Assembly (NCBI GenBank): GCA_016707895.1 | Contig: JADJGV010000034.1 | Span: forward strand, 629,625-693,624 | DNA from: Myxococcales bacterium | GTDB lineage: Bacteria > Myxococcota_A > Polyangia > Haliangiales > Haliangiaceae | Direction of reading: 5' to 3' | Length of the DNA stretch: 64,000 nt | Part shown: positions 53,367 to 63,179 of the stretch, one piece after another | How the letters are laid out: every line of letters starts with the position of its first letter | Numbering within the stretch: the first letter of the stretch is position 1 | Translations under genes and position numbers: made by a program | Notes under the pieces: model-generated | Database searches by the model: none | Told to the model about the DNA's origin: nothing | The model's input: the letters and a program-made list of their open reading frames with translations, nothing else

Positions 53367-54143
<777 letters not shown>

Positions 54144-54210
54144 CGCCGGCGATGGTACGCAGGCCGGCGATTGTCGCAACCGATCGCGCGCGCCGGTTGT
54201 CGCACCGCCC

Positions 54211-56640
54211 ATGCGTCCACTCGTGTGTGCGGTCGTGCTCGCCCTCCTGGCCGCGCCGGCGTCGGCCGACGTCCTCGGCGCCGCTCTCGATCAACCGCTG
54301 ACCGAGGTGTCGCACGCCGTCGACGTGTCGGTCGTCGACGGGATCGCGACCTACAAGGTCCAGCGGGTGTTCGCCAACGGCGGCACCAAGGCCGACGAGG
54401 TACGCCTCGAGATCGATCTGCCCTACGGCGGCGCCGCCACCGGGCTGCGCATCCGGGCCCGCGATCGCTGGTACGACGGCGAGCTGATGGAGGCCGAGAA
54501 GGCCGAGAAGCTGTACCTGGAGCTCACCGGCAAGGGCCGCTGGGAGCCCAAGGACCCGGCGCTGCTGTACTGGCGGTGGGCCGACAAGCTGCGGCTGCGG
54601 GTGTTCCCGGTCATGCCCGGCGGCACCAGCACCGTCGAGTACACGCTGACCGTGCCGACGCGCTACGAGCGCGGCAAGGTGTTCCTGTCGTACCCGCGGC
54701 TGGCCGAGGGCGCCGCCGACAACCTCGCGGTGCCGGTGTTCACGATCCGCCCGGGCTGGGGCAACGCGATGACCGCGATCAAGATCGACGGCGCGCGCAA
54801 GGCGCCCGGCGCGCCGATCGTGCTGGCTCGGCCGACCGAGCCGGCGTGGCTCGCGGCGATCAGCCACACCAGCGGCGCCAGCTACGTGGCGAGCGTGGTC
54901 GAGGTCGAGGACACCGCGCCGGCGCGCCGCGCCTTCGCCAAGGCCACCGTCACGCTCGACATCGAGCACACCTACCGGAGCGATCTGCGGGTCGCGCTGA
55001 TCACGCCCAAGGGCGACGAGGTCGAGGTCTTCGACGGCAGCGGCGGCAGCGACAACGACGTCCGCGGCGCGTTCCCCGTCGACCTGCCGGCCAAGACCGC
55101 GGGCGTCGGCGCGTGGCGCCTGGTGGTCTCGGATCACGCGGCGCTCGACGCCGGCACGCTGACCGCGTGGAAGCTGACGCTGGGCGACAAGGCGCCGGTG
55201 GTCGTCGACGCCAGCGACCTGCCGCTGTTCATCCCCGACGCGCCCGAGAACGAGTCCGACGGCGGCGTCGCGATGATCGAGCTGGCGCCGCCGCCGATCG
55301 ACGCGGTGGCCAACCGCTACGGCAAGGTGGTGGCGTCGAAGGCCCACGCCTTCGGGCGTCTCGAGATCGACGCCGCGCCCGAGCTGCGGCCGCTGCCCAA
55401 GAAGGCGCAGGTGGTGTTCGCGATCGACGCCTCGTACTCGATGGACGTCGAGGGCGTCGCCAGCCAGGTCGCGCTGATCAAGGGCTACCTGGCCCACGTC
55501 CCCGACGCCGAGGTCGAGGTGGTCGTCTATCGCCGCGCCGCGGCCCGGCTGTTCGGCGGCTTCGTCCCGGCCGGCCAGGTCGCGGCCAGGCTGGCCGCCG
55601 CCGAGCAGGCCGGCCGGCTGGCGCCGGGCAACGGCAGCGCGCTCGACGAGGGCGCGAAGCTGGCGGCGGCGCTCTTGGCCACCCGCAAGGGCGCGCTGCG
55701 GATGGTGCTGACCACCGACAACCGGCTGCGCGGCCGCTGGACCAACGACCTCGCGCTGGCCGGCCTGGCCGCGGCGCCGGCCGGCGCGGTGGTCCACGTC
55801 GTCGAGGCCAACCCGGAGGGCTTCGCGGTCGAGCTGACGCGGGACGACGCGCACCCGCTGGCGCCGCTGGCGCTGACCCACCACGGCATCGCCGCCACCG
55901 TCGTCGGGCTGGGCATCGGCGACAAGCGGCTGAGCGAGCGCGTGCTCGGGCTGGTGCGCCCGGTGCGGATCGATCACTTCGCGATCGGCGGCCTCGACCT
56001 GGTCAACGGCAAGTACGACCAGTCGATCCCCGACGTGCTCGACGAGGGCGCCGGGCTGCGGGTGGTGGTCGCCGCCGCCGCCGCGCCCGACAAGGTCGAG
56101 CTCACCGGCATGATCTGGGGCGACAAGTTCCGCCGGGTGGTCACCGCCGACGCGGCGTTCTCGAAGGCCGCCGCGGCGTGGGTGTTCTCCGAGGACGATC
56201 ACCAGGAGCTGTCGCACGAAGAGATGATGACGGTGGCGATGATGGGCAAGGCGGTGTCGCCGGTGACCTCGTACCTGGCCACCGAGCCCGGCGTGCGGCC
56301 GTCGGTGATCGGCCTCGAGGAGGGCCTGGCCGGCTTCGGCGTCGGCTCGGGCATGGGCGGCATGGGCATGTCCGGCGTCGGCGGGGTGCCGCTGGCGCCG
56401 CCCGACCCGATGACGCTCCTGGCCCGCGCCGCCGCCGCGTGCGTCAAGCGGCACCAGCCCGCCGCCGGCTGGGCGGTGCACCTCGACATGGAGACCACCG
56501 GCCACGAGGTCGTCGACGTGGTGCCCGGCGCTGGCGCGACCACGCCGGTCGGCGCGTGCCTGATCGAGGCGGTGTGGGCGCTGCCGCTGCCGACCAGCTA
56601 CGTCGCCGCGCGCGCGACGCACCCGCTCGACTTCCAGTGA
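54211..56640 (+). CDS. Secreted VIT-domain / von Willebrand factor A protein with an internal proprotein-convertase P-domain
   Basis: Signal peptide; N-terminal VIT-like region; P-domain-like block (RSDLRVALITPKGDEVEVFDGSGGSDNDVRGAFPVDL...WRLVVSD...GTLTAWKLTL); vWA MIDAS VVFAIDASYSMD. Confidence 0.75.
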   Translation: MRPLVCAVVLALLAAPASADVLGAALDQPLTEVSHAVDVSVVDGIATYKVQRVFANGGTKADEVRLEIDLPYGGAATGLRIRARDRWYDGELMEAEKAEKLYLELTGKGRWEPKDPALLYWRWADKLRLRVFPVMPGGTSTVEYTLTVPTRYERGKVFLSYPRLAEGAADNLAVPVFTIRPGWGNAMTAIKIDGARKAPGAPIVLARPTEPAWLAAISHTSGASYVASVVEVEDTAPARRAFAKATVTLDIEHTYRSDLRVALITPKGDEVEVFDGSGGSDNDVRGAFPVDLPAKTAGVGAWRLVVSDHAALDAGTLTAWKLTLGDKAPVVVDASDLPLFIPDAPENESDGGVAMIELAPPPIDAVANRYGKVVASKAHAFGRLEIDAAPELRPLPKKAQVVFAIDASYSMDVEGVASQVALIKGYLAHVPDAEVEVVVYRRAAARLFGGFVPAGQVAARLAAAEQAGRLAPGNGSALDEGAKLAAALLATRKGALRMVLTTDNRLRGRWTNDLALAGLAAAPAGAVVHVVEANPEGFAVELTRDDAHPLAPLALTHHGIAATVVGLGIGDKRLSERVLGLVRPVRIDHFAIGGLDLVNGKYDQSIPDVLDEGAGLRVVVAAAAAPDKVELTGMIWGDKFRRVVTADAAFSKAAAAWVFSEDDHQELSHEEMMTVAMMGKAVSPVTSYLATEPGVRPSVIGLEEGLAGFGVGSGMGGMGMSGVGGVPLAPPDPMTLLARAAAACVKRHQPAAGWAVHLDMETTGHEVVDVVPGAGATTPVGACLIEAVWALPLPTSYVAARATHPLDFQ

Positions 56641-56742
56641 AGGCCGGGCGGCCACGGCGCCGCCGCGCAAGGTTTCTTCACGTCCGCGGCGGCACTGGCG
56701 CAACGTCGGGCCCGCAGCTTGGGTAGCGAAAAGGAGCTACTC

Positions 56743-57258
56743 ATGCTGTGTCTCGCACTCGGTCTCGGAGTCCTCGGCGCCATCGGCTTCGCGCGCATGC
56801 ACCGGCGCCACCACGGCTGGCACGGCGGCGGTTGCCACGGCGGCGGTTGCCACGGCGGCGGTTGCCACGGCGGCCACGGCCACCACCACGGCGGCTGGCG
56901 CCACCGCCGCGCCCGCCGCTGGATGCTGGGCCGGATGTTCGAGCGCATCGACGCAAGCCCCGCGCAGGAGCGGGCGCTGGTGGCCGAGCTCGATCAGCTC
57001 GAGCAGCGGCTGCGCACCGCCCGCGGCAACCTGACCGCGCTGCGGCCGACGCTGGCCGAGGCGCTGCACGCCGACACGCTCGACGCCACCGCGGCGGCCG
57101 GCCTCGAGGCCGGGGTCGACGCGGCGATCGCCGACGCCCGCGCCGCGCTGTTCGACTCGCTGCGCGCGATCCACGGGCTGCTCGATCCCAAGCAGCGCGC
57201 CACCCTCGCGGCGATGCTCGGCGGCGCGGCCCGCGGCGCCGGCCCCTACCGCGTCTGA
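56743..57258 (+). CDS. CpxP/Spy/ZraP-like periplasmic protein with N-terminal His/Gly/Cys-rich metal-binding repeat (HGGGC x3, HGHHHGGWRH)
   Basis: Strong RBS AAGGAG 6 nt upstream of ATG; TM/signal segment; C-terminal helical domain with LTxxQ-like motif LLDPKQRATL; immediately upstream of two-component system. Confidence 0.7.
   Translation: MLCLALGLGVLGAIGFARMHRRHHGWHGGGCHGGGCHGGGCHGGHGHHHGGWRHRRARRWMLGRMFERIDASPAQERALVAELDQLEQRLRTARGNLTALRPTLAEALHADTLDATAAAGLEAGVDAAIADARAALFDSLRAIHGLLDPKQRATLAAMLGGAARGAGPYRV
56821..56865 (+). repeat. 3 x 15-bp perfect tandem repeat cacggcggcggttgc encoding HGGGC
   Basis: Direct inspection of sequence inside the CpxP-like gene. Confidence 0.8.
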
Positions 57259-57288
57259 GCGCGGCAACCGTGCGAGGATGAACGCCCG

Positions 57289-57975
57289 ATGCGGGTCCTG
57301 CTCATCGACGACGACGCCCGGCTCGCCGAGCTGCTCGTCGCGTACCTGGCGCCGCAGGGCGTCGCGCTCACCCACGCGCCCGGCGGCCAGGCCGGGCTGG
57401 CCCAGGTCGCGGCCGGCGGCTGGGACGCGGTCCTGCTCGACGTGATGATGCCGGGGCTCGACGGCCTGGCGGTGCTGCGCCAGCTGCGCGCCAAGGACGC
57501 GCGGCTGCCGGTGCTGATGCTCACCGCGCGCGGCGACGAGTCGGATCGTGTCGTCGGGCTCGAGCTCGGCGCCGACGACTACGTCGCCAAGCCGTTCTCG
57601 CCGCGCGAGCTCCTGGCCCGGCTGCGCGCGGTGGTGCGGCGGGCCACGCCGAGCGCGGTCGCGGCGCGGATCGCCGCCGCCGGCATCGAGGTCGACGTCG
57701 CCGGCCGGCAGGCGTGGGTCGACGGCGCGCCGCTCGAGCTGACCGCGCTCGAGCTCGACCTGCTGACGGTGCTGGTGCAGCGCGCCGGCCGGGTCGTGCC
57801 GCGGGCCGCGCTGCTCGAGCTGGCCGGCCGCGACGACACCACCGTCGGCGATCGCACGATCGACGTCCACATCTCGCGGTTGCGCAAGAAGCTGGGCGAG
57901 CCGGCCGCGGCGCGGCTCAAGACCGTGCGCGGCATCGGCTACACGCTGGCCCGCGGCGCCGACGAGGCGCCGTGA
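57289..57975 (+). CDS. OmpR-family two-component response regulator
   Basis: Receiver domain (LLIDDD, phospho-acceptor D in LLDVMMPG, KPF) and C-terminal winged helix (RTIDVHISRLRKKL). Confidence 0.9.
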   Translation: MRVLLIDDDARLAELLVAYLAPQGVALTHAPGGQAGLAQVAAGGWDAVLLDVMMPGLDGLAVLRQLRAKDARLPVLMLTARGDESDRVVGLELGADDYVAKPFSPRELLARLRAVVRRATPSAVAARIAAAGIEVDVAGRQAWVDGAPLELTALELDLLTVLVQRAGRVVPRAALLELAGRDDTTVGDRTIDVHISRLRKKLGEPAAARLKTVRGIGYTLARGADEAP

Positions 57976-59018
57976 GATCGCGGCGGCGCTGGCGCGAGGA
58001 GCTGCGCGCCGAGCGCGAGTTCTGGCGGCGCCACCACGCGATGCACCACGCGATGCACCACGCGCGGCGCCACCGCCACGGGCCGTGGTGGCTGCAGGGC
58101 AAGCTGCGGCTGCGCATCTTCCTCGGCTTCGGCGTGGCGCTGGCCGCCGGCGCGTGGGTCGGCGCGCGCCAGCCGCACTGGTGGCAGCTCGCGCTGATCC
58201 TGTCGGCGCTGTGGATGGTGGCGGGCGCGATGGCGTGGCGGCTGACCCGGCCGCTGGTGGTGACGATCGCCGCGGCCCGGGCGATCGGCGACGGCAAGCT
58301 CGACACCCGGGTCGACGTCGGCCACCGCGGCGAGCTGGCGATCCTCGCGAGCGCGCTCAACCACATGGCGGCGCGCATCGAGCAACAGCTGCGCGATCAG
58401 AAGGCGCTCCTGGCCGCGGTCTCGCACGAGCTGCGCACGCCGCTGGGCCACCTGCGGGTGATGATCGAGACCGCGCGCGAGCAGGCCGACTGGCGCGCCC
58501 TCGACGCGGTCGAGCGGGAGCTGCTGGCGCTCGACGATCTGGTGGCGCGGCTCCTGGCGTCGTCGCGCCTCGAGTTCGGGCGGATCGAGCGGCGGCCGCT
58601 CGACGTCGCGGCGCTCACCGCCGACGTCGCGCTGGCCAGCGGGGTCTCGGCCGACGTGATCGCCGCCGAGGGCGACGCCACCGCGGCGATCGATCCGACG
58701 CTGGTGCGCCGCGCGATCGCCAACCTGATCGACAACGCCGCCCGCCACGGCGGCGGCGTGACCGCGATCCGCATCGAGCGGCGCGCCGACGAGGTGGTGG
58801 TCGAGGTCGACGACGCCGGCCCCGGGCTGCCCGCCGATCGGGTCGGCGACGTCGGCCGCGCGTTCGTGCCGTCGACCGGCGGCGGCCTGGGCTTGGGCCT
58901 GGCGCTGGTCGCGCGGATCGCCGCCGCCCACGACGGCCGGAGCTGGGCCGGCGAGCGCCCCGGCGGCGGCGCCCGGGTCGGGCTGAGCCTCGCGGTGGCG
59001 CCGCGCGCCGAGCCGTGA
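57972..59018 (+). CDS. Sensor histidine kinase with His-rich N-terminal cytoplasmic segment (HHAMHHAMHHARRHRH), two TM helices, HAMP, HisKA, HATPase
   Basis: H-box AAVSHELRTPL, N-box LIDNAARHG, G-boxes DDAGPGLP / GGGLGLGL; GTG start overlapping RR stop (GTGA). Confidence 0.85.
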   Translation: MRSRRRWREELRAEREFWRRHHAMHHAMHHARRHRHGPWWLQGKLRLRIFLGFGVALAAGAWVGARQPHWWQLALILSALWMVAGAMAWRLTRPLVVTIAAARAIGDGKLDTRVDVGHRGELAILASALNHMAARIEQQLRDQKALLAAVSHELRTPLGHLRVMIETAREQADWRALDAVERELLALDDLVARLLASSRLEFGRIERRPLDVAALTADVALASGVSADVIAAEGDATAAIDPTLVRRAIANLIDNAARHGGGVTAIRIERRADEVVVEVDDAGPGLPADRVGDVGRAFVPSTGGGLGLGLALVARIAAAHDGRSWAGERPGGGARVGLSLAVAPRAEP

Positions 59019-59021
59019 GCG

Positions 59022-60401
59022 TCAGCCCGCGAGCGTGAGGATCGCGATCGCCGCGTCGAGCCGGGTCGCGGCCTGATCGTCGGCCAGCGCGCCCCACAGG
59101 CCGGCGGTGATGGCGCCGGCGCCGACGTGGGCCTGCACCACCGCGCGCCGCACGTCGGCGTCGGGCGAGCCGGCGAGCTCGGTGAGGATCGCCGCGCCGT
59201 GCGGGTCGCCGAGCCGCGCCAGCTCGGCGGCGGCGTCGGCGCGATCGGCCGGGGCCGCGGTCGCCGCGAGCGCGGTCAGCGCGGTGAGCGCGGCGCCGTG
59301 CTGACCCAGGTACGCCAGCGCGCGGGCCGCGGCCAGCTTCACCGTCGGCGCCGGATCGGCGAGCGCCGCGGTGGCGCGGGCGATCGCCGCGTCCTGCGGC
59401 AGCGCCGCGGCCAGCAGGTTGACCACGCCGGCGCGGGTGCCGACGTCGGTGGCGCCCAGCGCGCGATCGAACACCGCCACCGCGGCGGCGCGATCGCCGC
59501 GCCGGTGCGCCGCGGTCGCCGCCACCATCGGATCGGCGTGGGCGAGCAGCGCCTCGAGCGCCGGCTTGCCGCCGGCCTTGGCCACCAGCGCCACCGCGGC
59601 CAGCCGCACGGCGAGCGACTCGTCGGCCAGGAAGCGCGTCGCGTCGGGCAGGGCCGCCCGGCCACCGCCGCCGGCGGCCAGCGCCGCGATCGCCGCGGCC
59701 CGGACCTCGGCCGCGCCGTCGCCGGTCATCGTCACCAGCTCGGCCGCGCCGTCGCCGCCGACCGTGCCCAGGTAGCGCGCGACCGCGGCTCGCACCTGCG
59801 GGTCGGGATCGCCGGCCAGCGGCCGCAGGTCGTCGATCGCCAGCCGCCGGACCTTGCGGCCGATGCCTTCGACGGCGATCGCCCGGGCCCGCGGGTCGTC
59901 GGAGCGCAGCATCTGCTGGGCGACGTCGGGGGCCTGGCCGAACGAGCGCAGCACCGCCACCGCCGCCGCCGCCGCCACCGCGTCGTCGTCGTCGCCCATC
60001 GCCTTGCCGACGTCCTCGGCCAGCTCCTCGAGCTCGAGGCGCTCGATCGCGCGGATCGCGGTCAGCCGCAGCGCCGCCGACGGCGACGTCACGCCCTGCC
60101 ACACGGTGGTCAGCGCCATCGTGCGCAGCGCCTTGCGATCGTCGGTGCCGCCGTGCTGCGCGCGCCACGCCCGGTAGTCGGCCACCGCGCGGCCGGGATC
60201 GCCCAGGCCGAGCAGCGCGCGCAGCCGGATGCGGTGCAGCTCGGCGTCGCCGGGGTGCTTGGACAGCTCGGCCGCGGTGTAGTCCGAGGCGCCGCGGTAG
60301 TCCCCGCGGGCCAGGAGCGTGTTGGCGTGCTGGACCGACGCCGACGGCCCGCAGGCGGTGGCGGCGATCACGACGAGGGACAGGAGCAGGGCAGGGCGCA
60401 T
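59022..60401 (-). CDS. HEAT/PBS-lyase-like repeat lipoprotein
   Basis: Lipobox IAATAC; repeated DP..VR.AA..AL modules. Confidence 0.7.
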   Translation of the reverse strand: MRPALLLSLVVIAATACGPSASVQHANTLLARGDYRGASDYTAAELSKHPGDAELHRIRLRALLGLGDPGRAVADYRAWRAQHGGTDDRKALRTMALTTVWQGVTSPSAALRLTAIRAIERLELEELAEDVGKAMGDDDDAVAAAAAVAVLRSFGQAPDVAQQMLRSDDPRARAIAVEGIGRKVRRLAIDDLRPLAGDPDPQVRAAVARYLGTVGGDGAAELVTMTGDGAAEVRAAAIAALAAGGGGRAALPDATRFLADESLAVRLAAVALVAKAGGKPALEALLAHADPMVAATAAHRRGDRAAAVAVFDRALGATDVGTRAGVVNLLAAALPQDAAIARATAALADPAPTVKLAAARALAYLGQHGAALTALTALAATAAPADRADAAAELARLGDPHGAAILTELAGSPDADVRRAVVQAHVGAGAITAGLWGALADDQAATRLDAAIAILTLAG

Positions 60402-60520
60402 GGCGGACTCCGACGGCAAGGATGCACCGCCCGACCCGGGCGGGCCAGGCGCGCGTGCCTGAGGTGTGTGCCTGCGTAGTGGCGGCGCCCGCCGCCGCGG
60501 TTACGTGCTACCCACAGCGC

Positions 60521-62145: not shown

Positions 62146-62400
62146 ATGCGGAGGGTTTCTCGCGAAACCCTCCCCCCGGCATTCGCCGGGGCCCCCCTCC
62201 CAAGACGGCCCAGATCCTCGGCGCGTCTGTCCGAGCCTTTCGCTGGGGCCGAAACGGCCGAAGGCCGGATCCGCGTGGACCCGGCCTTCGTCTCGCAGTC
62301 TCCTGTGCCCCGTGCCGAACGCTCTCGCGTTTCGGGTGGGGGCCCCACGTCTTGTGGGGGAGGGGCTTTGCGAAAGCCCCTCCAGGAAACAGGATCTCAG
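62146..62400. repeat. REP-like intergenic repeats, copies C and D in inverted (tail-to-tail) orientation, with additional hairpins between them
   Basis: Forward copy: GGAGGGTTTC-tcgc-GAAACCCTCC, CCCCGGCattcGCCGGGG, CCTCCCAAGACG. Reverse copy (as revcomp): GGAGGGGCTTTcgcAAAGCCCCTCC ... CCCACAAGACG ... ACCCGAAACGCGAGAGCG. Confidence 0.7.
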
Positions 62401-63179
62401 CCGCCGATCTGCCACTCGCCGCCGACGCGGACGTAGACGTTGCCGCGCAGCTCCCAGCGCACCGGCGCCCAGCGGTGGCCGGCCTTGGCGCGCTCCCAGT
62501 GGCCGGGGACCCACTCGTACTGGCGGGCCTGCTCGCTCCACGCGTAGGCGCCCTCGATCCAGACGTAGCCGCGGCGCGCCGCGCCGGGGTTCTCGACGCG
62601 CGGCGGGGGCGGCGCCATCGTCGGACCGACGATGACGACCTGGCCGCCCGACGAGATCACCGTGCCGGCGCCGTTGGTGGCGATCACGCCGCCCTGGCCG
62701 TTGTTGACGATGACGCCGCCGTTGCCGCCGACCACGCCGCCATTGCCGCCCACCACCACGCCGCCGCCACCGGGCTGGTCGTAGCGGTGATCCTGGTTGT
62801 GCGGATCGATCACGGTGCCGCCGCCGCCGCCGGTGACGACCACGCCGCCGCCGACCACGACCCAGCTGCCGTCGACCCAGTGCCAGCTACCGTTGCGCGG
62901 CTCCCAGCGGCCGTCGTTCCAGGCGTAGCCAGAGCGCTCGCGCTCCCAGTGGCCATCGACCCACACCCACTGGCCGCCCTGCCACTGCCAGTTGCCCTTG
63001 ACCCACACGTGGCCGCTCATCGGCTGCGGGTTCTCGGCGCGCGGGGGCGGCGGTTGATCGTAGGCGACGACGGCGCCAGTGGCGATGCGGCCCCGGGCCG
63101 TGACGACGCAGGCGGGGAGCGTGGTGCCGAGCAGGGCCGCGAGGCCCAGGGTCGACAGGATCCGACGGGTACGGTTCAT
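62397..63179 (-). CDS. Lipoprotein with internal Trp-rich repeats (W..G.W.WV.G.W) and Gly-rich (GGNGGV) repeats
   Basis: AAGGAG RBS 7 nt upstream of ATG; lipobox TLPAC; repeated YVW..G.W.W / HWER modules. Confidence 0.7.
   Translation of the reverse strand: MNRTRRILSTLGLAALLGTTLPACVVTARGRIATGAVVAYDQPPPPRAENPQPMSGHVWVKGNWQWQGGQWVWVDGHWERERSGYAWNDGRWEPRNGSWHWVDGSWVVVGGGVVVTGGGGGTVIDPHNQDHRYDQPGGGGVVVGGNGGVVGGNGGVIVNNGQGGVIATNGAGTVISSGGQVVIVGPTMAPPPPRVENPGAARRGYVWIEGAYAWSEQARQYEWVPGHWERAKAGHRWAPVRWELRGNVYVRVGGEWQIGG

Follow-up and report, generated by a model that had tools for sequence, protein, structure and literature searches.

The characterized members of the LTXXQ fold family are four accessory proteins, Spy, CpxP, ZraP and CnrX, all of which carry lysine or arginine residues (K/R) ahead of the hydrophobic core of the N-terminal segment. 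CnrX, with a basic N-terminus before its membrane anchor, is oriented N-in and holds its domain in the periplasm, where nickel or cobalt is bound through a set of His, Glu and Met residues, while ZraP, which proved the best structural match to the protein discussed below, has ends rich in Gly, His, Cys and Trp, and these metal-binding ends are likewise periplasmic. A different kind of membrane accessory is LiaF, which negatively regulates (inhibits) LiaS, a kinase of the intramembrane-sensing type (PMC3543457, PMC7191749). In the present study, we analyzed a locus in a 64,000-nucleotide stretch of DNA from a Myxococcales bacterium of the family Haliangiaceae (assembly GCA_016707895.1, contig JADJGV010000034.1, positions 629,625 to 693,624; hereafter "the window"), where a gene for a small protein of the LTXXQ fold precedes those of an OmpR-type response regulator and a histidine kinase. 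The original prediction, made from the letters of this DNA, took the locus for a putative metal-responsive envelope module. Our analysis suggests instead that the small protein is probably anchored in the reverse orientation, N-out/C-in, with its His/Cys-rich linker and its Spy-like domain in the cytoplasm.

The reading of the open reading frames (ORFs) gave three closely packed genes on the same strand, whose products are a protein of 171 aa, a regulator of OmpR type and a histidine kinase with a HAMP domain, just as the original prediction had described them together with the ribosome-binding site in front of the small gene:

56731..56736, plus strand, Shine-Dalgarno sequence AAGGAG, read from the sequence, with the ATG six nucleotides downstream
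56743..57258, plus strand, gene of the small, putatively membrane-anchored Spy/CpxP/ZraP-like protein, 171 aa
57289..57975, plus strand, gene of the OmpR/PhoB-type response regulator, 228 aa
57972..59018, plus strand, gene of the histidine kinase, 348 aa

The GTG start codon of the kinase gene overlaps the stop codon of the regulator gene (GTGA). The DNA of the locus is approximately 75% GC, and coding frames were accepted only where the GC content of the third codon positions (GC3) exceeded that of the first (GC1). The three frames, with GC3 of 0.94 to 0.98, above GC1, are backed by this measure, while the opposite strand has two long ORFs, 56737..57870 and 57939..58931, that were rejected as genes, GC1 being higher than GC3 in both. 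The peptide strings on which the original prediction had been built, that is, HGWHGGGCHGGGCHGGGCHGGHGHHHGGWRH, LLDPKQRATL and HHAMHHAMHHARRHRH of the kinase, are all present letter for letter.

The gene order of the system is strongly conserved. A scan of one genome per species yielded 77 loci, nearly all from metagenome-assembled genomes (MAGs) of Kofleriaceae/Haliangiales and a few from Anaeromyxobacteraceae and Polyangia, and the order small gene, regulator, kinase was found in practically every locus of sufficient length, covering about 70 Kofleriaceae/Haliangiales species. Across the related loci the regulator is 61 to 99% and the kinase 38 to 97% identical. At thresholds of E ≤ 1e-3 and E ≤ 1e-10, an exhaustive profile search with the small protein retrieved 1758 and 788 cluster representatives, respectively, and the distant members in a Minicystis MAG and on another long contig also precede an OmpR-type regulator and a kinase. 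When all called genes of the 77 loci were clustered, no neighbor beyond the three genes was shared with the window. The locus is, probably, a self-contained, autoregulated three-gene signaling operon that is widespread in Myxococcota.

The assignment of the small protein to the fold family agrees among several searches. The Pfam model LTXXQ (PF07813) matches residues 60 to 157 with 28.6 bits, over the gathering cut-off of 24.3, which bears out the C-terminal domain of CpxP/Spy/ZraP type that had been proposed. The model Metal_resist (PF13801) gave the window protein 17.2 bits, below its cut-off of 29.2, and many relatives have a precomputed match to this model. A profile made from 114 family sequences matches Spy (PDB 3oeo) with E = 8.4e-7, aligning IDASPAQ (residues 69 to 75) and LLDPKQ (residues 146 to 151) with LNLTDAQ and ILTPEQ of Spy, respectively; P73, Q75, L147, D148 and Q151 in these motifs are invariant or almost so among the homologs. 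A narrower profile of 40 sequences found nothing significant in the PDB, with CnrX at E of about 1, and no NCBIfam model for the small protein was found. In the AlphaFold2 model, the domain forms the bent, long α-helical hairpin typical of the LTXXQ family, with a predicted local distance difference test score (pLDDT) of 84 to 96, while residues 2 to 23 are helical and residues 24 to 45 are disordered, with pLDDT below 50. The best matches in both structure and sequence were Spy, CpxP, ZraP and CnrX. The membership itself is not new because an identical protein at NCBI already bears the name [quoted passage not shown] The parts of the protein, as read in the window, are the following:

56743..56811, plus strand, N-terminal transmembrane helix (residues 1 to 17, MLCLALGLGVLGAIGFA) and the basic cluster RMHRRH
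56812..56910, plus strand, disordered linker rich in His, Gly, Cys and Trp (residues 24 to 56)
56920..57213, plus strand, LTXXQ helical-hairpin domain of Spy/CpxP/ZraP/CnrX fold (residues 60 to 157)
56947-56970 and 57178-57198, plus strand, variants of the LTXXQ motif, IDASPAQE and LLDPKQR
57241..57255, plus strand, conserved C-terminal tail GPYRV

In 40 aligned homologs, P168, Y169 and R170 of this tail are invariant, with a column identity of 0.88 for the tail, and a GPYR motif is found near the C-terminus of most of 149 representatives of the family. The same alignment shows H144 as the sole invariant His of the folded domain, where D70, E76, E82, D114 and D148 are also invariant.

The orientation of the small protein is suggested by the distribution of charges around its N-terminal helix. 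In 64 of 68 homologs no K/R precedes the hydrophobic helix, which begins right at residue 1, and one to five K/R lie within the 15 residues after it, and the same pattern is found in 133 of the best 149 family representatives, the exceptions being mostly truncated or having a mis-called start. The linker adds up to a total of 5 to 13 K/R in the homologs. The start codon is pinned by a ribosome-binding site (GAAAGGA/AAGGAG) conserved at a constant distance in the related loci. By the positive-inside rule of von Heijne, basic residues flanking a helix mark its cytoplasmic side, and basic residues just past the hydrophobic core, in the early mature part of a protein, block Sec export. The N-out/C-in orientation is therefore predicted because there is no charge before the helix and a basic cluster after it. 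The basic n-region of a Sec signal peptide, by which members of the LTXXQ family reach the periplasm, is lacking as far as can be judged from the sequence. In addition, the N-terminal helix equals the folded domain in conservation (mean column identity 0.75 and 0.71, respectively, compared with 0.43 for the linker), and its residues A5, G7, G9, L11 and G12 are conserved at 90% or more. Such conservation would fit a functional helix-helix interface, unlike a cleaved signal peptide. The "membrane/signal segment" of an envelope module, as it had originally been conceived, thus gives way to a probable anchor with a cytoplasmic domain, given the missing basic n-region, the RxxRR after the core and the high conservation.

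The linker between the anchor and the domain keeps its composition but not its sequence (column identity 0.43). Linkers of homologs are 30 to 62 aa long and contain 4 to 14 His, 0 to 4 Cys, 4 to 19 Gly and 1 to 4 Trp, and every full-length member except one has at least one linker Cys. In the window, Tandem Repeats Finder located a 15-bp unit repeated 3.6 times at 56821-56874 with 100% matches, in accordance with the three perfect 15-bp tandem repeats noticed earlier, and the array codes for GGGCH three times. Among proteins that are at least 94% identical, one, two, three or about four copies of GGGCH occur, giving total lengths of 161, 166, 171 and 175 to 179 aa, respectively. A second array, of which the original prediction made no mention at the DNA level, lies in the kinase gene and codes for HHAM; one or two copies are seen within clusters of at least 94% identity, and P0089 has one fewer than the window. 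The suggested comparison of repeat copy number across related strains accordingly showed variation in both arrays, so that the repeats are no chance feature; they are active slippage sites that differ among strains and not conserved ligand arrays. As a separate observation, the linker of P0193, a distant representative that is otherwise approximately 39% identical, reads GWHGGGCHGGGCHGGGHG and has a GGGCH repeat as in the window, which suggests a recurrent or convergent expansion.

The regulator is of OmpR/PhoB type, with the Pfam domains Response_reg (residues 3 to 112) and Trans_reg_C (residues 147 to 220), and the kinase contains HAMP (residues 87 to 138), HisKA (PF00512, residues 143 to 202) and HATPase_c (residues 241 to 340). 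The kinase segments that precede these domains are as follows:

58032..58079, plus strand, stretch HHAMHHAMHHARRHRH (residues 21 to 36), which holds the repeat on the next line
58032-58064, plus strand, 12-bp unit (HHAM) repeated 2.8 times, from Tandem Repeats Finder, 100% matches
58107..58238, plus strand, first transmembrane helix (TM1, approximately residues 46 to 65), loop RQPHWWQ and second transmembrane helix (TM2, approximately residues 73 to 89), read from the sequence, with HAMP from residue 87

The kinase belongs to the intramembrane type: about seven residues separate its two helices, and practically nothing of it is periplasmic. Because HAMP must be cytoplasmic, the N-terminal 45 residues including HHAMHHAMHHARRHRH are cytoplasmic as well, and because the loop is so short, the kinase cannot sense a periplasmic ligand by itself. 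Both the cytoplasmic His-rich segment before TM1 and the near absence of a periplasmic loop had been predicted for this kinase. A comparison of 58 kinases, i.e., 57 orthologs and that of the window, extends the first of these points: the 40 residues before TM1 contain on average 5.8 His (14.5%, range 1 to 11), while the remaining kinase contains 2.3% His. The His-rich segment, on whose presence in orthologs the original prediction depended, is therefore retained in composition, although the exact His run at the position of HHAM is found only in the nearest clade (L001, L002, L003, L022 and L033). A conserved juxtamembrane motif, RWxELHAEREMWxR...PWWLQARMRRRIF (also given as RWxELxAEREMWxR), surrounds this position, with the HHAM array in the variable linker between its halves, and a pattern PWWLQxxxRxRIF...WW is kept in the orthologous kinases. 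By motif count, 35 of the 58 kinases have a cytoplasmic N-terminal domain of about 130 aa, LiaF-like_C (PF09922), which scored 43.7 and 35.8 bits in orthologous kinases against a cut-off of 29, while 9 have other long N-terminal extensions, some of them acidic coiled coils, and 14, including that of the window, are short. Pfam detected no LiaF-like_C in the three proteins of the window, whose clade has lost the domain. Since the LiaF-like_C extensions are cytoplasmic, the sensory elaboration of the kinase seems to take place on the cytoplasmic side.

Neither the regulator nor the kinase reached the cut-off of any NCBIfam equivalog or subfamily model, including those of CpxR/CpxA, BaeR/BaeS and CopS/CusS/CzcS. 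The regulator scored 165 bits with the CpxR model (cut-off 341) and the kinase 102 bits with the CpxA model (cut-off 486), while the heavy-metal models TIGR01386/TIGR01387 (CusRS/CopRS/CzcRS) gave 104 bits for the kinase against 292.55 and 166.5 bits for the regulator against 279.2. The system is therefore not an ortholog of a named one, and the earlier statement that it matches no characterized system holds.

The region upstream of the small gene contains two blocks that recur in the related loci:

56667..56681, plus strand, 15-nt box GCAAGGTTTCTTCAC, candidate binding site of the regulator or candidate element of a promoter
56698..56720, plus strand, second block GCGCAAC (GCGaAACA in the family) followed by the −10-like hexamer CAGCTT (CAtccT in the family), from the comparison of 64 loci

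In 56 of 64 loci the distance from the box to the downstream ATG is 69 to 74 nt, mostly 71 to 72 nt. Its pattern GCAAKGTTTCTTCAY, with one mismatch allowed at most, is found exactly once in 57 related loci and twice in four loci with tandem paralogs of the small gene, and the whole 64-kb window has a single exact copy of the box, the next best site having three mismatches, which is the level of chance. In the hexamer, positions 2 (A) and 6 (T) are the most informative by position-specific information over the 64 loci, and the second block together with the hexamer may be read as a promoter. The regulator probably acts on its own operon through the candidate box. Two other explanations of the conserved blocks were rejected: an inverted repeat GTTTC...GAAAC from the box to the second block is not a general feature, given that the window reads GCAAC, and pairing of CAtccT with the Shine-Dalgarno sequence would comprise 4 bp only, with no excess of folding in a typical locus (L006).

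Some further observations concern the same region. A leader hairpin is predicted at 56713-56750 (−23.2 kcal/mol, z = −4.0; none of 200 shuffled sequences folds equally well), in which the Shine-Dalgarno sequence GAAAAGGA falls within an 8-nt loop and the AUG within the stem. The 5' arm would be part of the RNA only if transcription starts far enough upstream, and the hairpin is specific to the clade, a comparable one being found in L022 and none in the more distant L006. In 24 of 64 related loci (e.g., L006, L007, L030, L042 and L061), repeats of CCGGAC cluster some 90 nt ahead of the box, often as CCGGCCGGACRNCGGAC, at a density of 8.2 per kb compared with about 1 per kb across the loci on both strands. 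These clusters, which are not found in the window, sit between the operon and a divergently transcribed YifB/ComM-like gene that is frequent upstream in relatives and absent from the window. The small gene is duplicated in tandem in L004 (4287-5507), L011, L013 and L021, each copy having its own 15-nt box.

Directly upstream of the operon, at 53836-56640 on the plus strand, is a gene whose large product combines VIT, proprotein-convertase P and VWA domains, and at 59022-60419 on the minus strand a gene for a HEAT/TPR-repeat protein converges with the kinase gene, with 3 nt between the stop codons; besides the window, both occur only in its closest loci, L001 and L022. Farther away in the window, 52192 to approximately 53330 on the minus strand is the 3' part of a long ORF that encodes a low-complexity protein extremely rich in Pro and Ala (PPLPAP and APIARP repeats), the segment having 82% GC, and 62397-63179 on the minus strand encodes a 260-aa protein with a signal-peptide- or lipoprotein-like N-terminus and three WXXGXW repeats (PF12779, E = 2e-16) with a Gly-rich stretch between them. 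In L005, L009 and a few other loci, triads that resemble CnrYXH are located three to five genes away from the operon; each combines an extracytoplasmic function (ECF) sigma factor with a zf-HC2-like anti-sigma factor and with an LTXXQ-like protein distinct from that of the operon.

Built on the observed gene content, fold family, synteny, upstream box, compositional conservation and repeat polymorphism, the reading we propose, with a probability of about 0.45 for the whole of it, is that an anchored Spy-like accessory protein regulates an intramembrane kinase, that the His-rich segments respond to metals or protons, and that the system feeds back on its own operon. The accessory would be a small bitopic protein composed of a Gly-rich helix, a basic His/Gly/Cys/Trp linker, a Spy-fold hairpin and a GPYR tail, whose linker and Spy-like domain would share the cytoplasmic face with the His/Arg segment, HAMP and the catalytic core of the kinase. 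Intramembrane helix-helix contacts and its cytoplasmic domain might let it dock on the kinase, in the way that CpxP, ZraP and LiaF dock on theirs, and once docked it would set the kinase/phosphatase balance. Occupation of the linker and of the His-rich juxtamembrane segment of the kinase by Zn, Ni, Co, Cu or protons could alter this docking contact. The phosphorylated regulator would then act at the 15-nt box, so that the accessory protein might also be an output of the system and close a feedback loop. Physical coupling between the small protein and the kinase seems reasonably likely to us, while a metal as the signal is put forward tentatively. On this last point, the original proposal of metal sensing fares unevenly: the His-rich composition is indeed a family trait in both the linker and the kinase, but the gene context gives nothing in its favor.

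Several points weigh against the reading as a whole. No conserved gene for a metal transporter, chaperone or efflux protein stands beside the operon in the 77 loci, and what speaks for metal sensing is therefore composition alone; a ligand set of CnrX type is not evident because H144 is the only invariant His in the domain. The change in repeat copy number is equally in keeping with a spacer under loose constraint and with a ligand array that can be tuned. The predicted orientation draws solely on the positive-inside rule and conservation, and the hydrophobic stretch, with 16 to 17 residues, is short as a membrane span. In addition, some distant members are neighbors of kinases whose periplasmic domain measures about 100 aa (L064, L070, L074, L075, L077 and L078), for which periplasmic contact of CpxP type would be the textbook expectation, and at least one member, in the cultured Polyangium aurulentum, has no two-component system adjacent to it. 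Autoregulation through the box is likewise a deduction, and neither a match to a −35 element nor, in a scan of 56500-59300, a consensus sigma-70 promoter was found, which would be the look of an activator-dependent promoter; the scan gave no intrinsic terminator either.

One way to account for the locus is the classical layout of CpxP, ZraP and CnrX, in which a signal peptide or an N-in anchor would place the His/Cys-rich stretch and the domain in the periplasm to bind metal or misfolded proteins there, and the signal would reach the kinase through transmembrane helices or the short loop. This is essentially the envelope view of the original prediction, and it has on its side that every characterized member of the fold, i.e., Spy, CpxP, ZraP and CnrX, is periplasmic and that these are the best matches, that the small residues before the basic cluster (GFA, AIA) could mimic a peptidase site, and that the distant members just mentioned adjoin kinases with a sizable periplasmic domain. 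Export is nevertheless disfavored by the lack of a basic n-region in 133 of 149 representatives together with the two to seven K/R straight after the core and the further 5 to 13 in the linker, a segment as conserved as the folded domain is atypical of signal peptides, and the window kinase exposes just about seven residues to the periplasm, all of which makes this layout rather improbable in our view. Another explanation is sensing of membrane or envelope stress, and not of metal, in the manner of LiaFSR, where the small protein would be an inhibitor like LiaF or CpxP that sits on the kinase and is released on membrane stress, and the His/Gly and His/Arg stretches would be low-complexity spacers seeking the membrane surface (Trp, Arg, His), their exact sequence being irrelevant. 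The intramembrane type of the kinase and the PF09922 matches above cut-off, the domain being present in 35 of 58 kinases, agree with such a system, as do the repeat number that varies in near-identical strains, the low column identity of the linker and the lack of any metal-related neighbor. Still, enrichment in His is found throughout the family, both in the linker (4 to 14 residues) and before TM1, while a neutral spacer at 75% GC would be expected to drift to Ala, Gly, Arg and Pro and not to His, Cys and Trp, and the window kinase, which lacks the LiaF-like domain, and the regulator fall into the HisKA and OmpR classes instead of HisKA_3 and NarL, those of LiaSR. We consider stress sensing of this kind unlikely.

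A further explanation makes the small protein an output only, a membrane-tethered metal buffer or chaperone comparable with Spy under Bae/Cpx control and with the cytoplasmic His-rich stores of Ni or Zn, while the kinase senses alone. The position of the box before the small gene and its duplication together with that gene can be explained in this way, the repeat copy number would merely tune capacity, and the member of P. aurulentum could work without an adjacent two-component system. What makes this explanation quite improbable is the near-universal gene order with tight spacing across highly divergent lineages, the strongly conserved Gly-rich transmembrane helix, which suggests a specific helix-helix partner, and the conserved GPYR tail, which resembles a docking motif.

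The combination of an LTXXQ accessory with a two-component system is already known as a kind, and annotation pipelines place the protein in its family. New are the anchor with reversed charges, the His/Gly/Cys/Trp tether, the GPYR tail, the intramembrane kinase with cytoplasmic additions, the conserved putative operator and the large, Myxococcota-wide distribution. As a bolder idea, which we offer with considerable reserve, the Myxococcota family (at least 788 clusters at 50% identity) might be the first branch of the Spy/CpxP/ZraP/CnrX fold on the cytoplasmic side, in which the N-out anchored domain with its His/Cys-rich tether and the kinase N-terminus, either His/Arg-rich or bearing LiaF-like_C, would form a composite sensor for cytoplasmic transition metals or protons at the inner leaflet, whose capacity would be tuned from strain to strain as the GGGCH and HHAM repeats slip. 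In the literature on LTXXQ proteins, on ZraP, CpxP, Spy and CnrX and on accessory proteins, we found no membrane-anchored or cytoplasm-facing member. If the idea is true, the Spy fold is not bound to one compartment, although its textbook members are periplasmic accessories for stress or metals in Gram-negative bacteria, and intramembrane kinases, whose signals remain mostly poorly understood, would have a novel accessory-protein input. The 15-nt box offers a direct handle on the regulon, and the differences in repeat number between strains amount to a natural experiment on the importance of His and Cys dosage. The impact is limited in that the hosts are uncultured Kofleriaceae and related Myxococcota and that the key claim of orientation is a prediction.

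The parallel with zraP-zraSR and cpxP-cpxRA drawn in the original prediction is sound as regards gene order, which is strongly conserved, but it does not extend to orthology, the regulator being of OmpR type and the cut-offs for CpxR and CpxA being missed. ZraP of the enterobacterial ZraPSR system (PDB 3lay) has its signal peptide cleaved off and is soluble in the periplasm, whereas the protein of the window has an N-terminal anchor and is predicted to be cytoplasmic, and its His-rich part comes before the domain. The kinase ZraS has a periplasmic domain and the regulator ZraR is a sigma-54 regulator of NtrC type, in contrast to the loop of about seven residues and the OmpR-type regulator found here. 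Spy and CpxP of Escherichia coli (PDB 3oeo, 3o39 and 3itf) are also periplasmic, and CpxP acts on the periplasmic sensor domain of CpxA, for which the window kinase has no counterpart. CnrX and NccX (CnrYXH; PDB 2y39 and 3zg1) have an ECF sigma factor and an anti-sigma factor for partners, where the present system has a two-component pair, and the window protein differs from CnrX in its reversed charge pattern, its one invariant His in the domain and its PF13801 score below the cut-off. With regard to the LiaFSR-like systems of Firmicutes, LiaS is a HisKA_3 kinase and LiaR a regulator of the NarL class, while the kinase and regulator of the window belong to HisKA and Trans_reg_C (OmpR), respectively; LiaF crosses the membrane with four helices and lacks an LTXXQ domain, and the window kinase has no LiaF-like_C, which in relatives is fused to the kinase and not to the accessory. 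The likeness to these systems, on the other hand, lies in the two-helix kinase with a minimal outside loop, in the membrane-anchored accessory encoded upstream, and in LiaF-like_C itself, which is part of most of the compared kinases.

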